From NCBI GenBank assembly GCA_029856105.1, contig JAHQWH010000016.1, forward strand, positions 1 through 61,892: a stretch of DNA of 61,892 nt. The letters run 5' to 3'. This stretch comes from Promethearchaeia archaeon (GTDB lineage: Archaea; Asgardarchaeota; Lokiarchaeia; Sigyniarchaeales; SOKP01). The position numbers were made by a program, and so were the translations under genes. The notes under the pieces were generated by a model. The model worked only from the letters and a program-made list of their open reading frames with translations, made no database searches and was not told where the DNA came from. This document shows positions 6,399 through 14,967 of the stretch, piece by piece. How positions within the stretch are numbered: the stretch's first letter is position 1; each line of letters begins with the position of its first letter.

Positions 6399-9300
6399 AT
6401 GATCGAAGATGATATCAATTCGCACCAATGCAGATTTTGCAACTCGTCATTCTCAGTCGAAATTCTCAAAAAGATCGAAGATAATAGAGATGATGTTTAC
6501 TGCGAAAATTGCGGAGATTTAATTAAAAGAGTTCAAAGTAAATATAATTTTAATCCTATTAAAATTATTGAAAACGCCTCTAATACCAATACTAAAGATA
6601 CACCTACTAAGCCTCAAAAAGATTTAGAAAGCAACCCTGACGCTTTACATTACCCAATTGGCCGAATTTTTTACGACACTGATTTCCCACTAATTTTTAA
6701 GAGCAATTTCATTATTGTATTTTCTCGCCTTACTTATTTTCATGCGCTACATTTAGAGAGTAAAGGGCAAATCGAACTTGGGGGTTTGGAAGTACCTGAA
6801 AATGCCATTAACAACCTCTTTATGTCTATAAGGCATATTCAGGAGAAGCGAATTAAGTCTGAATTCCTAAATAACCTCCATGAAATTTCTAAGGAGGAAT
6901 TTGAACGCAATCTAAAACAATTACAGGCTAAAATTCAATCCGACCATCAGTATCGGGAAGATTTTATCGTTTACTCCCGGTGGTTAATAAGTAAGGCGTA
7001 TCTTCTTATCTCTAACGAATCCAATAAGGACAACCTTTCAAAGTTTGATCTAACTATCTATAAGGATATAAAAAATCAAAAAGAATTATTCGAGAGTAAA
7101 CTAGAACAATTTGCAAATAAACCTACAAACACAACATTCGTGAAGAGAAGAAGTGAATCTAAGAGGATTAAAGAAGCGAGAATTAACTTTGAACGGAATA
7201 TACTTAATGAATTAAAGAGAATAGCTATTAACTATGAAGATCATGAATTATTATATAAAATAGCAAAGAAGATTGTAAAAAATGCAATTTCACAACCTAA
7301 TCAACTTTCAATTGACGATTTACCTAGTGGTCGGAAAATAAATCCCAAATACACGGCTTCAGCTTTTATATATTATGGATTAAGGCACACTGATTACAAC
7401 GATAAGTATGAAAAATACAAGCTATATGGAGTTATGGAATATATTAAGGAGTTTTATTCAGGAAATAAGACTATGTTAAGAGCTTTACAAAGTATAATTC
7501 CGTTAATATATAGGTTTCTTTTAGTAGAAAAGAGTAGTATTCTTTACTTTCCAAAATCAAAAAAGTATAACATCGAAGAAACGGTAAAGGAAAGGAGACA
7601 GAATCTTTGGATAGAAAATCGTTCAAAAATTTTTAAAAATGATCTAGAGAAACTTATAAATGAATTTAGTAAAGTTTTTGCTAAACAAACTCTTATTAAA
7701 AAAATCACTAAAGATCTTTTAAAAGATGCCATATCTGAGCCTAATTCTTTTTCAAAACAAGAAATTCTTGAATCACAGATTAGGTTAACAACACCAAAAT
7801 ATTATTGTGTTGCGCTTTTATTTTTAGCCTATAATCATGAAGATTACAATAAAGAAAAACTAGGAATTTCAAACTTCTCAAGAAAGTATTTTCCAAGCTA
7901 TATAAAGGAAAATAATTCGACCATTCCTTTTCTTTATAGATTTATTTCACCTGAAGTCAAGGGAAAAATTAACTATATTCCAATCATAAGGTATAAAGAT
8001 AAATACAAAAAATTTGATGAATTAAGACTTTGGGAAATAGTTAAAGAATTTCTACAAGCCTTTATTGATACAGGGATGAAAAAATATTTGAATCAGGCAA
8101 AAAGTCTTTTTTCCTCATCAAAAGAGGGTGGATTTGATCTACAAAATTTAGAAAGTAAGAATCCAAAATTTTTAGCTGCTACTTTAGTTTATTACAGCTT
8201 AATTCTCAGTGATAATTTTAATTTCATCTTAAAAGAGAGCTTCTTAAATCATATGAGGAATGCCGAATTTACAATTGGAAATAAGGTTTATAGATTAATT
8301 TCAGATTTTAATCCATATGTTCTTAAACATCTTGAAAAGCTTCGAATAAAAAAAAACAAAGAATTCGATGAAAATGAAATAGAAACAGATATAAACACTA
8401 CAGAGTTAAATACAGAAAAATCAAAAATAGTAATTAGTATCAAAAATCGATCCAATATCAAAAGAGAGTTCTTTCTTCATAAATTATTAGAAATTAGAGA
8501 AAAACATAAACAAAATGATAGAAACGATAATGTAATACTATGTGATTTAATTTTAAAATCTCTAGAATTCTACTAAGATTTTAATGCTTTTACTAAAGAT
8601 GCTCAATTTCTAAGATCATCTGGTTCTCCTAAACAAATTTTACTTCGGTTGAGTAAGAATAATTTATTGGGTAAAAAACAAGATTTAGATAGATTTATTG
8701 TAAAATATTTAAATTTTATAGATAGACTTGATACTAGTTTAGAAATTAAGAAATCATATACATCCCTTTTAACACATTATTATGAAGAAAGAAAAAATAG
8801 ATTCGATGAACATAACAAAGAAAAAAAAGTTAGGGAGAAACAGCGTAGGGCTAAATATGGTGATCTCTTTTTCTCACATGCTGTTAGGGTAGAAAGATTT
8901 CTCATAATGCTTGGATTTAGTCCTTTTGACGGGTATGATATTTGGGAAAATAGAGTAATAATTGATGATAAAATTCGTTTATATGCTAATTTTCATCATA
9001 TTAAGTATGTACCAGAAGAGAGATCAAAAAGAGAATTAGTATTCATCCCCCAAAAACCTCCTAAAAAATATCTAAAAAATACAGATAAATTTTTGTCGCA
9101 TTCAATGATTGCTGGAATGGAGGGGAATTTAAAAAGAAATGACATCTCTAATATTGTAAGACATAAAATAGAAAGAGAACTTAAGTCAATTCAAAATGTA
9201 ATCGAATTCAATTCAAAGATTTTAGAAAAAGCTGTTATAACTTTTAATCCAGAACTAATACTTAAATTAAAAGGATGGTCAAAGGAATGTATGAAGAGAG

Positions 9301-9461
9301 CAATTGATAGGATAAATGATCGAGAATTTTCTTGGGCAAAAGATGTTGAGAAAGGGGTCCCTACAGCCGGCGGTTATGAAAATGAAAGGATTGAACACAG
9401 TGAAGCTAAAAGGGTTATTCAAGAAATCTTAGATGAACGAGAAAGAAGAATTTTAGACTAG
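6399..9461 (+). pseudogene. Zn-ribbon / TFIIB-cyclin-like repeats / HNH-like protein interrupted by one in-frame TAA (8574-8576)
   Basis: ORFs 6399-8576 and 8649-9461 share a frame, with no other stop between them; N-terminal CRFC..CENC. Confidence 0.6.
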
Positions 9462-9696
9462 TTATTATCCCTCTATCACTTGTTCATAAAGTTTATTTGA
9501 AAAGATTAATTTTTAAACTTACTAAGTTCAAAATTAGTTTTTTGAAAGACTTAGAACGTAATAATAATACGGTTTCAATATACGAAAGATATTGGAATGA
9601 ATAAATTGGAAAAATTTAGCATTATTTTTATGTTTCTTAGCCTTTAAATGACTAGCTTTGAATTTTCAATTTAAATAAAAAATTTTGACGAGGAAA

Positions 9697-10255
9697 ATGA
9701 GTAAAACAAACAAAATCATTGTTAAGGCCCTTGTGACTGGAGGGAGAGAAAATTTATATTTTATAACTTTTCCCCTAATGCTTCAGGAGGGCCACCTATC
9801 GGCCCCGCTGTAGGTCCTACTGGCATAAAATGGAAATTGAATCGATTTCCTATGCAAACATCAAGGACGTAGTGGACGCCGTTAACGAAAGGACCATGCT
9901 TTTTAAGGGTTTAACGGTACCCATTAGAATCGAATGCGATCCTGCGACAAAACAGTTTGAGATATTCGTAGAGACGCCAAGTACAGCTTCACTACTTTTA
10001 AAAGAATTAGGAGCTGAAAAAGGGAGTTCGAATAGTTCTGAGGAGAAAATTGGAGATTTAACTCTTGAACAGGTAGTTAATGTTGCTACCGCTAAAAAGG
10101 ACATCTTTTTAGATAAAACCTTCAAAACTGCTGTAAAGACCGTAATTGGGACGGTTTTGTCAATTGGAGCCACAATAGAAGGTGAGGACCCGCGAGTAAT
10201 TCAGAAAAAGATTGAAAATGGAGAATATGCCGACATGATAAAGGGGGAGATGTAA
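9697..10255 (+). CDS. rpl11: 50S ribosomal protein uL11, split by two BHB introns; exons 9697-9746, 9779-9828 and 9858-10255
   Basis: Spliced product MSKTNKIIVKALVTGGSASGGPPIGPAVGPTGINIKDVVDAVNERT..., 165 aa; first gene of the L11-L1-L10-L12 operon. Confidence 0.93.
9747..9778 (+). other. putative mRNA intron 1 of rpl11 (32 nt, relaxed BHB)
   Basis: Central helix AGGG/CCCT, bulges AGA and AAT, inner stem GAAAA/TTTTC; removal restores frame. Confidence 0.88.
9829..9857 (+). other. putative mRNA intron 2 of rpl11 (29 nt, BHB)
   Basis: Central helix GCAT/ATGC, bulges AAA and AAA, inner stem GGAAAT/ATTTCC, exon stems TG/CA and GTCCT/AGGAC. Confidence 0.9.
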
Positions 10256-10258
10256 AAA

Positions 10259-10987
10259 ATGAAAATTGATGATAAGCTATTAAAAAAATCGTTAGATGCT
10301 GCAATTGAACATTCGACTATTAAAAAGGAAGGCTTTAAAGATAAAATCAGGAAATTTGACGAATCAATTGACCTCATTATGAATTTGAAAGACATTAACC
10401 TCAAAGATCCTAAACAGAGGATCGATAAGGAAATAATACTACCTAATAACATAATAACTAAAGATAGGCCTAGCATCTGCGTAATTGCATCAGACGAGAT
10501 ACTTCTTGAAGCTAAGAATCTTGGACTTGAAACGATGGATAAAGACGGTTTAATCAAACTAAATAACGAAGAAAAAAAGTATAAGAAAAAATTTGTAAAG
10601 AAATACAATTTCTTCGTAGTAGAAGACAAAATGATGCCAAATGTAGCTCGATATTTAGCGAGATTCCTTGGACCACTAGGTAAAATGCCGAAACCTTTCC
10701 CTAGCGGATATGGGATTATTTCCAATCCGAACGATTTAAACGTGGCAATTGAGAGATATTTAAAAGTTATTCGAATTCAATTAAAGAAGCAACCACTTAT
10801 TCAAGTGAAAGTAGGAAAAAAATCTATGGACAAGGATAAAATCTTTGAAAACATGAAAGCTATCGTTGAGTATATTGCTGATCAGATGCCTCATAAATAT
10901 AACAACATTAAATCTATATTTTTAAAAACTACAATGGGACATCCAATAAAAATTGATGAACAGTTTTTGAAGGGTATAGAGGTGTAA
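10259..10987 (+). CDS. rpl1: 50S ribosomal protein uL1
   Basis: RKFDESIDL, LGPLGKMPKP and KTTMG motifs; operon position. Confidence 0.95.
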   Translation: MKIDDKLLKKSLDAAIEHSTIKKEGFKDKIRKFDESIDLIMNLKDINLKDPKQRIDKEIILPNNIITKDRPSICVIASDEILLEAKNLGLETMDKDGLIKLNNEEKKYKKKFVKKYNFFVVEDKMMPNVARYLARFLGPLGKMPKPFPSGYGIISNPNDLNVAIERYLKVIRIQLKKQPLIQVKVGKKSMDKDKIFENMKAIVEYIADQMPHKYNNIKSIFLKTTMGHPIKIDEQFLKGIEV

Positions 10988-10991
10988 AAAA

Positions 10992-11957
10992 GTGATCAGA
11001 AAAAAAGAAATACATCAATGGAAATTGGATGAAGTCGTTCATTTAGTTGATTTGTTTAAAAACTATAAAACTGTTGCTGTAATAGAAGTTGCGAGATTAA
11101 ACGACAAACAAATTCAAGAGATGCGAAAAATCTTAAGAGGGAAAGCAGTAATAAGAATGTCAAAAAAGAAGCTTCAACTAAGAGCCGTAGAACAGTATAA
11201 AAACGAGTCTAAAAAAAAAAACTTAGAAGAACTCGCCGAAAAAATTCCAGGACAATCCGCATTATGTTTTATCAACATAGATATCTTTGAATTAATGAAA
11301 ATATTTAATGAAAATGAATGGATGGTCTCTGCTAAACCTAACGAGATAACACCAGTAGATATTTGGGTTACTGAGGGGGACACAGGATTGCCCACGGGAC
11401 AAGTTATCAGTGAATTGAACATGACGCTCCGACTTCCAACTAAAATCCAGAACGATACGATTTGGGTTAGAGAAGATACGCGAACGCACTCAGCGGGAGA
11501 TTACGTTGATGTAAAACAGGCAGCAGTCTTAAAGAAGTTAGGTGTAGCTCCAATTAAATCGCTTATTAAAATTTTTTACGCGTGGAGCGACGGTGAAATC
11601 ATTCCTGAGGAAATTCTATATATGGATATGGAACAATTCCAACAAGAGCTTGCATCTGCCTACTTCGGCGCACGAAGCTTAGCTTTAGAACTAGGTATTG
11701 TCGATAACGAAACGATTGAACCATTAATCCAAAAAGCACACCGAGAGGCTCTTGGAATCCTTTTTGAATTACCTGTTTATTTTGACGATATGAGGGATGA
11801 ATATATCCGAAAAGCCGTATCAAATGCTAGCACTATTAAGGCTATAGTACTTGGAGAAGACCTTCAGATTCCAACTAAGAAAGAAGAAGACAAAAAAGAA
11901 AAACCTGAAGAAGATGAGGAAGAAGAAGTTGGAATTGGAGGCTTATTTGGTAATTAA
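10992..11957 (+). CDS. rpl10: 50S ribosomal protein uL10/P0 (GTG start)
   Basis: QIQEMRKILRG and GDTGLPTG motifs; acidic tail ending GIGGLFG. Confidence 0.95.
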   Translation: MIRKKEIHQWKLDEVVHLVDLFKNYKTVAVIEVARLNDKQIQEMRKILRGKAVIRMSKKKLQLRAVEQYKNESKKKNLEELAEKIPGQSALCFINIDIFELMKIFNENEWMVSAKPNEITPVDIWVTEGDTGLPTGQVISELNMTLRLPTKIQNDTIWVREDTRTHSAGDYVDVKQAAVLKKLGVAPIKSLIKIFYAWSDGEIIPEEILYMDMEQFQQELASAYFGARSLALELGIVDNETIEPLIQKAHREALGILFELPVYFDDMRDEYIRKAVSNASTIKAIVLGEDLQIPTKKEEDKKEKPEEDEEEEVGIGGLFGN

Positions 11958-12031
11958 ATTAATTTTTTTAAATAAAATAAATAACCACAAATTTTAATTA
12001 TAATTGGATAAAAAAAAAGAGGTATAAAAAG

Positions 12032-12331
12032 ATGGAATCAATATATGCTGCGTTACTGCTTAATAAAGCAAATAAAAAGATTACAGAAGCAAACATCGAA
12101 AAAATCTTAAAAGCTGTAGATGTAACTGTTGACAAAGCTCAACTTACAAAAGTAGTAGCAGGGCTTAAGGAGGCTGACATTGAAACAATAATCAGTTCTG
12201 CCGCCGCAGCTCCAGTGATGGCTGCTCCGGTTGCTTCTTCAGCGTCTGCAAAAGCAGCCCCCAAGAAAAAGAAGGAAGAAAAGGAAGAAGAAGTTGAGGA
12301 AGAACCTACGGGAATTGGCTCGTTATTTTAA
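12032..12331 (+). CDS. rpl12: ribosomal stalk protein P1/P2 (archaeal L12)
   Basis: MESIYAALLL, Ala-rich hinge, acidic tail ending GIGSLF. Confidence 0.95.
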   Translation: MESIYAALLLNKANKKITEANIEKILKAVDVTVDKAQLTKVVAGLKEADIETIISSAAAAPVMAAPVASSASAKAAPKKKKEEKEEEVEEEPTGIGSLF

Positions 12332-14864: not shown

Positions 14865-14967
14865 CGCAGACAGAGGGATTCGAACCCTCGGATGCTTTCA
14901 CACACCGGCTTTCTGGGACCGTTTTTCCGCTCCAAGCCGGCGCCGTACCAGGCTAGGCAATGTCTGC
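14865..14967 (-). tRNA. tRNA-Ser(GGA) with a 19-nt canonical 37/38 intron (14911-14929)
   Basis: Acceptor GCAGACA/TGTCTGC, anticodon stem CCGGC/GCCGG, long variable arm, TTCGAAT T-loop, discriminator G. Confidence 0.9.

Follow-up and report, generated by a model that had tools for sequence, protein, structure and literature searches.

A predicted bulge-helix-bulge intron in the ribosomal protein uL11 gene of a Lokiarchaeal genome and its lineage-specific in-frame ATG

In the literature searched, cbf5 is the only archaeal coding sequence reported to carry a bulge-helix-bulge (BHB) intron (PMC7714728, PMC2738675), and one BHB intron is described in a 5' UTR, that of the HVO_1309 mRNA of Haloferax volcanii (Schwarz et al. 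2020, PMC7714728). For Asgard archaea, a 2026 preprint (bioRxiv 10.64898/2026.10.13.758758) considers tRNA introns only, and no BHB intron in an Asgard protein-coding gene is described in the literature searched, a coverage outside which most subscription journals lie.

The cbf5 pre-mRNA of Crenarchaeota (Watanabe 2002; Yoshinari 2006; Yokobori 2009, PMC2738675) resembles the uL11 gene analysed here in having a short BHB intron within the coding sequence (CDS), with a patchy distribution among relatives. Its intron is removed by the heteromeric tRNA splicing endonuclease, and the same type of enzyme is proposed for uL11. The two cases differ in their host, which is here a ribosomal protein gene of Lokiarchaeia (Asgard), and in their density, as uL11 has two introns in one gene, exons of 50 nt, a total of four sites in a stretch of about 34 codons when the whole genus is considered, and intron presence varying at 1-2% divergence. 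Splicing of cbf5 was demonstrated experimentally, whereas that of uL11 is predicted from sequence. The HVO_1309 transcript is likewise an mRNA substrate of the archaeal splicing endonuclease, being neither tRNA nor rRNA, but its intron lies in the untranslated leader and leaves the frame untouched, whereas the uL11 intron breaks the frame of an essential-type gene. The non-canonical tRNA introns of Asgard and TACK archaea (Marck & Grosjean 2003; bioRxiv 10.64898/2026.10.13.758758), in which the lineage is reported to be rich, with repeated gains, share the motif, size range and enzymes with the uL11 introns. Unlike in the tRNA introns, the exon half of the uL11 motif consists of codons, so that synonymous sites are constrained and the unspliced transcript can be translated.

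In the splicing of HAC1/XBP1 (IRE1 with RtcB or Trl1), a short frame-shifting intron is cut out at stem-loops by a protein endonuclease, the exons are religated (in metazoa by RtcB), and the protein is changed. This resembles a switch that had been proposed for uL11, as a functional analogy only and not as membership of the same system: the HAC1/XBP1 intron and its alternative product are conserved and regulated, whereas the uL11 intron and its ATG are not conserved and have no known sensor.

The uL11 locus and its gene model

The window, i.e. the whole stretch of DNA that was analysed, is a 61,892-nt contig from a Lokiarchaeal metagenome-assembled genome (MAG) of low GC content (about 31%). 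The stalk operon uL11-uL1-uL10-P1 occupies positions 9697-12331 (+), and its uL11 locus is the single match in the whole genome. The following features are referred to below:

9690-9693 (+): GAGG Shine-Dalgarno-like motif, 3 nt before the uL11 start ATG 9697
9697-10255 (+): uL11 (rpl11), first gene of the operon, in three exons (spliced CDS compared with orthologue L119)
9697-9746 (+): exon 1, comprising codons 1-16 (from M1) and the opening two bases of the Ser17 codon
9747-9778 (+): intron 1, 32 nt, predicted relaxed BHB with central helix AGGG 9741-44 / CCCT 9773-76
9779-9828 (+): exon 2, which begins with the third base of the Ser17 codon and ends with the first of the Asn34 codon
9811-9813 (+): TAG stop of the reading frame in fully unspliced mRNA (38-aa product)
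9814-9868 (+): whole BHB motif of intron 2 (sequence, folding, covariation)
9829-9857 (+): intron 2, 29 nt, predicted from the BHB and from comparison with orthologues
9830-9832 (+): ATG within intron 2, in the frame of exon 3; this lineage has T in place of the C of ACG
9858-10255 (+): exon 3, which begins with the second base of the Asn34 codon and ends with the stop TAA 10253-55
10259-10987 (+): uL1-like gene, starting 3 nt past the uL11 stop and named from operon order and ORF

The uL11 gene is spread over three reading frames and no single ORF spans it. The frame of ATG 9697 runs for 38 codons to TAG 9811, the second frame holds the conserved GGPPIGPAVGPTG segment of uL11, and the third holds the remainder (IKDVVDAVNE…). 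Removal of both introns yields a 498-nt CDS encoding a 165-aa uL11, which aligns without gaps to the intron-less orthologue L119:918-1412 with 153 of 165 residues identical, residues 10-45 being identical throughout; both Pfam domains, L11_N and L11, are present in this orthologue. The cuts for intron 1 are placed at AG|A and AA|T, the joined AG and T restoring the Ser codon, and intron-less orthologues read GG-S-A-S-GG at this junction. Retention of both introns gives a 38-aa product, and retention of intron 2 only gives one of 47 aa ending in …GPTGIKWKLNRFPMQTSRT. As either retained intron breaks the frame and leaves a dead-end peptide of 38 or 47 aa, splicing would be obligatory for the only uL11 gene of this genome.

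Just upstream of the operon, two large ORFs (725 and 270 aa) lie in the same frame with a stop between them (6399-9461, +), and the first of the pair has a Zn-ribbon N-terminus. The search for tRNAs in the window gave 0 with ARAGORN and one 103-nt match with Rfam (14865-14967, -), which presumably contains an intron.

Structure and comparative evidence for intron 2

All the BHB elements that the preliminary description had located were found in the sequence: a central helix GCAT 9823-9826 / ATGC 9852-9855, the bulges AAA 9827-9829 and AAA 9856-9858, an inner stem of 8 bp (GGAAATTG 9832-9839 / CGATTTCC 9843-9850), and pairing between the exons (TG 9821-22 / CA 9859-60 and, further out, GTCCT 9814-18 / AGGAC 9864-68). 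The exon helix is weak, with 2 bp adjoining the central helix, an internal loop and then 5 bp. For the 55-nt segment 9814-9868 the folding energy is -14.7 kcal/mol (z = -3.47), and an equally good fold is obtained in 1 of 200 shuffles. The minimum-energy fold is slid by one pair, with a 5-bp helix GCAUA/UAUGC in which A9827 pairs with U9851, a 4-nt 5' bulge and an open 3' loop. The canonical 3-4-3 register requires a one-base bulge (U9831) or an unpaired U9851 at the junction of the central helix and the inner stem, and at -11.5 to -12.3 kcal/mol it is 2.4-3.2 kcal/mol less stable than the minimum-energy fold. The motif had been called near-textbook, a description to which the energy of its canonical register is a caveat. 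The A-AAA-U run located 2 nt before the 8-bp hairpin (9827-9850) could permit -1 slippage to the exon-3 frame on unspliced RNA; it is not conserved in the 28-nt variants of the insert and is probably meaningless.

The cut has four equivalent positions in the A runs, all leading to an identical product; the canonical placement, past the second base of each bulge (AA|A and AA|A), yields the junction of the intron-less orthologues. Removal of 9829-9857 gives GGC AUA AAC AUC (G-I-N-I), with a predicted spliced junction …GGCATAA|ACATCAAGGACGTAGTGGACGCC and the spliced peptide GPTGINIKDVVDAVNER. Intron-less orthologues have GGC ATA AAC ATC at this precise junction, in agreement with the one initially proposed. 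An alternative register, CAUA/UAUG, adds one Lys; it was rejected, and is disfavoured only because this residue is missing from the 62 intron-less orthologues. Searches of the 3.66-Mb genome for other copies of intron 1 or 2 (blastn-short) returned only matches of 11-19 nt at chance level (best non-self E = 0.36), so that intron 2 is not a repeated element at detectable similarity.

Orthologous loci were drawn from 40 related genomes, GTDB species representatives and JGI metagenomes, and yielded 102 distinct N-terminal regions. An insert of 28 or 29 nt at the exact site of intron 2 was found in 31 of these, and 62 have no insert and read G-I-N-I. The other 9 were unscored at first, eight having an insert at another site and one (L163) a divergent peptide missed by the anchors. 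Covariation was scored on the 29 distinct aligned copies among these 31. Pairing in the central helix is complete (100% of cells) and includes a single double change from C-G to U-A in addition to G-U variants; the inner stem is paired in 90% of cells, with G-C replaced by A-U in 8 copies. Overall pairing reaches 91%, compared with 29-45% when the partners are slid by 1-3 columns. The exonic side behaves likewise: the third base of GGC (Gly32, central helix) is C in 30/31 carriers and 15/62 non-carriers, the sole carrier without C having a compensating change, and the third base of ACT (Thr31, exon helix) is T in 27/31 carriers and 8/62 non-carriers. These contrasts at synonymous sites are inflated by relatedness, and their direction is the one that a functional BHB predicts.

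The locus has a 4-bp central helix, two 3-nt bulges on opposite strands, flanking helices h and h', and an insert whose removal restores the product, in a genome that encodes both EndA and RtcB. The presence of a 29-nt BHB intron truly interrupting the uL11 gene, as predicted from its sequence, is confirmed. The domain tRNA_int_endo (PF01974) is found in two paralogues, each on its own contig, with scores of 98.5 and 72.3 bits. Their ORFs (L191:1171-1773 and L192:1210-1815) encode 200 and 201 aa, and one has a catalytic-type His in an …EHSAF… context where the other reads …DSAKF…; these motifs suggest that they are the catalytic alpha and structural beta subunits, respectively. RtcB is present with 558.8 bits. 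Asgard EndA has been reported to be of the broad-specificity (alpha-beta)2 type with an L1 insert (PMC5829648).

From the structure, its covariation, the exact junction and the enzyme genes, we infer that cleavage and ligation take place in vivo. The operon pre-mRNA would fold locally, the exonic GCAU of the Gly32-Ile33 codons pairing with the AUGC at the 3' end of the intron. The heteromeric EndA (alpha + beta) would cleave within the two AAA bulges, and RtcB would ligate A|AC, rebuilding Asn34 and, with intron 1 also removed, giving the normal 165-aa uL11. Intron 2 is very probably a BHB intron of the ordinary archaeal type that is spliced constitutively and is unusual in its host, the uL11 CDS, and ATG 9830 is very probably an accident of its sequence. 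When exon 3 was searched against 5.8 billion proteins, all matches were cluster representatives of at most 93% identity, and none was a full-length product identical to that of the window; this outcome speaks neither for nor against splicing.

The intronic ATG and the alternative readings

As had been described, ATG 9830 is in frame with exon 3 and lies 16 nt past the TAG at 9811-9813; its ORF (9830-10255, MEIESISYANIK…) encodes 141 aa. Across the 31 distinct copies the triplet at this site is ATG in 9, ACG in 11, AGG in 4, AAG in 3, ACT in 2, and ATT and CCG in 1 each, which gives T10, C14, G4 and A3 at the middle base. This base stands opposite U9851 and is mismatched or bulged in most copies, while the A of the triplet forms the edge between bulge and helix and the G makes the first G-C pair of the inner stem. 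On the evidence of the alignment, A and G are structural and ATG simply appears where the nearly free middle base is T. A tree was built from exon 3 and uL1 (90 sequences), on which the presence of ATG among carriers requires at least 5 changes. Within the window's well-supported clade of 17 sequences, ATG is found in the window only and ACG in all 10 other intron-2 carriers, including L111, the 97%-identical sister of the window, so that the window's ATG is a recent C-to-T change. The other ATG carriers are all without intron 1, which makes the succession of TAG, 16 nt and ATG unique to the examined genome.

The preliminary description had taken this succession as a device by which unspliced mRNA would be translated to TAG 9811 and reinitiation at ATG 9830 would produce the 141-aa uL11, without the start of its N-terminal domain and with coupling to uL1 kept, the spliced fraction acting as a switch on the stalk operon. 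Such an intron-encoded alternative start would have been the first switch of its kind for archaea. The frame is indeed open to the normal stop, the TAG is placed 16 nt upstream, the RNA-binding C-terminal domain would stay intact, and an in-frame ATG also occurs in eight relatives from several clades. The comparative data nevertheless argue against it. Conservation of the ATG in relatives, the check named at the time, fails: 22 of the 31 copies have no ATG, including every intron-2 carrier of the window's clade except the window itself, the middle position varies among all four bases, and an open-frame ATG exists in 8/31 copies, the ninth ATG copy (L128) meeting an in-frame TAG after three codons. 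Nor is the stop-then-ATG arrangement common to the other ATG carriers, which have no intron 1. Upstream G content around starts peaks genome-wide at -12 to -7, and the four operon starts are preceded by GAGG, GGAG or GAGGT, whose last base lies between -4 and -10; ATG 9830 has no Shine-Dalgarno motif at this spacing, the nearest being an AGGT at -18 to -15. The N-terminal domain of the 141-aa product would be reduced to profile positions 26-58 of 58 (1-25 lost), scoring 23.8 bits against a cut-off of 32.9 bits, with the C-terminal RNA-binding domain intact. The uL1-like gene has its own Shine-Dalgarno motif, GGGGGAG, 9 nt upstream, so that the postulated coupling to uL11 is not needed. Finally, intron 2 is missing in close sisters of carriers (e.g. 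L114 vs L032, L162 vs L070) and is therefore not a conserved regulatory device, a finding that fits poorly with a conserved switch. As judged from the compared sequences, ATG 9830 is not under selection, and we regard regulated reinitiation as highly improbable; some initiation at 9830 on unspliced RNA may occur in the examined strain, as this is compatible with non-conservation.

Even less credence can be given to the reading in which the insert is decoded by recoding, through a -1 slip of tRNA-Lys on A-AAA (9827-9830), or in which the gene is a pseudogene or an assembly error. Recoding would lengthen uL11 by about 10 residues (…GIK-MEIESISYA-NIK…; peptide …GIKMEIESISYANIK…), and it can draw on an A-rich slippery run placed 2 nt ahead of a stable 8-bp hairpin and on a frame that is open after the -1 shift. 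However, the 28-nt variants, in many of which the AAAA run is missing, would need a different shift, and a second, independent recoding event would be needed for intron 1. The conservation is that of a BHB: the central helix covaries, and each strand has an A-rich bulge of 3 nt. In the orthologues the insert is precisely absent from a segment that is highly conserved, which is not the pattern of a tolerated insertion. A pseudogene or an assembly error is difficult to reconcile with an insert present in 31 distinct sequences from independent assemblies, and with this being the only uL11 gene.

Intron-bearing relatives are represented in public databases by truncated 'L11' calls (127-142 aa), one of them beginning with MEIESISYANIK. 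The MEIESISYANIK… ORF is a gene-caller artefact and not a designed isoform, and short L11 calls are a systematic annotation artefact in Promethearchaeota MAGs. By leading gene callers to such short L11 proteins, BHB introns distort marker-gene sets and completeness estimates. Short calls starting just past an intron site were noted for proteins P0006, P0020, P0054, P0086 and P0087, and the starts observed for short calls are MDAVNE…, MGPTGIN…, MGPAVGPTG… and MEIESISY….

Turnover of insert sites and biological meaning

Across the genus, four insert sites are found in uL11 within codons 16-34, namely in the Ser17 codon, at Ile24/Gly25, at Val28/Gly29 and in the Asn34 codon. The insert at Val28/Gly29 is BHB-like (…GCTGTA|30-33 nt|GGTCC…) and is carried by L047, L053, L055, L056, L057, L065, L171 and L178. 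The sites are occupied in many combinations, even between sequences 1-2% apart, and on the tree of exon 3 and uL1 sites 1, 2 and 4 require at least 12, 13 and 20 changes, respectively. An interpretation of these counts as pure gain and loss was rejected, given that the operon's 5' end, set against that tree, is a mosaic. Haplotypes were compared over the 260 nt upstream of exon 3 (L001, L113, L109, L138, L136, L156, L011, L010, L144): promoter/5'-UTR and intron haplotypes are common to different clades of the exon 3 and uL1 tree and vary within clades, and L109 has the intron 1 and intron 2 sequences of the window's clade on the backbone of another clade. These sequence patterns indicate recombination at the operon 5' end, which is a mosaic with respect to the exon 3 and uL1 tree, so that intron turnover is partly allele exchange and not all de novo gain or loss.

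It is conceivable, and we put it forward tentatively at a little below even confidence, that the four BHB introns of uL11 are swapped, lost or gained as quickly as strains diverge, tRNA-type introns in essential mRNAs then being a population polymorphism that moves fast. If so, the closest prokaryotic relatives of eukaryotes would have an active mechanism by which introns are precisely lost or gained (copy-back from spliced RNA, or short-tract recombination), and translation would routinely have to await splicing.

With an intron in this gene, tRNA-splicing enzymes must process the highly expressed uL11 mRNA, and uL11 translation must tolerate or avoid unspliced transcripts. The uL11 intron thus bears on the origin of introns and on the separation of transcription and translation on the line leading to eukaryotes.
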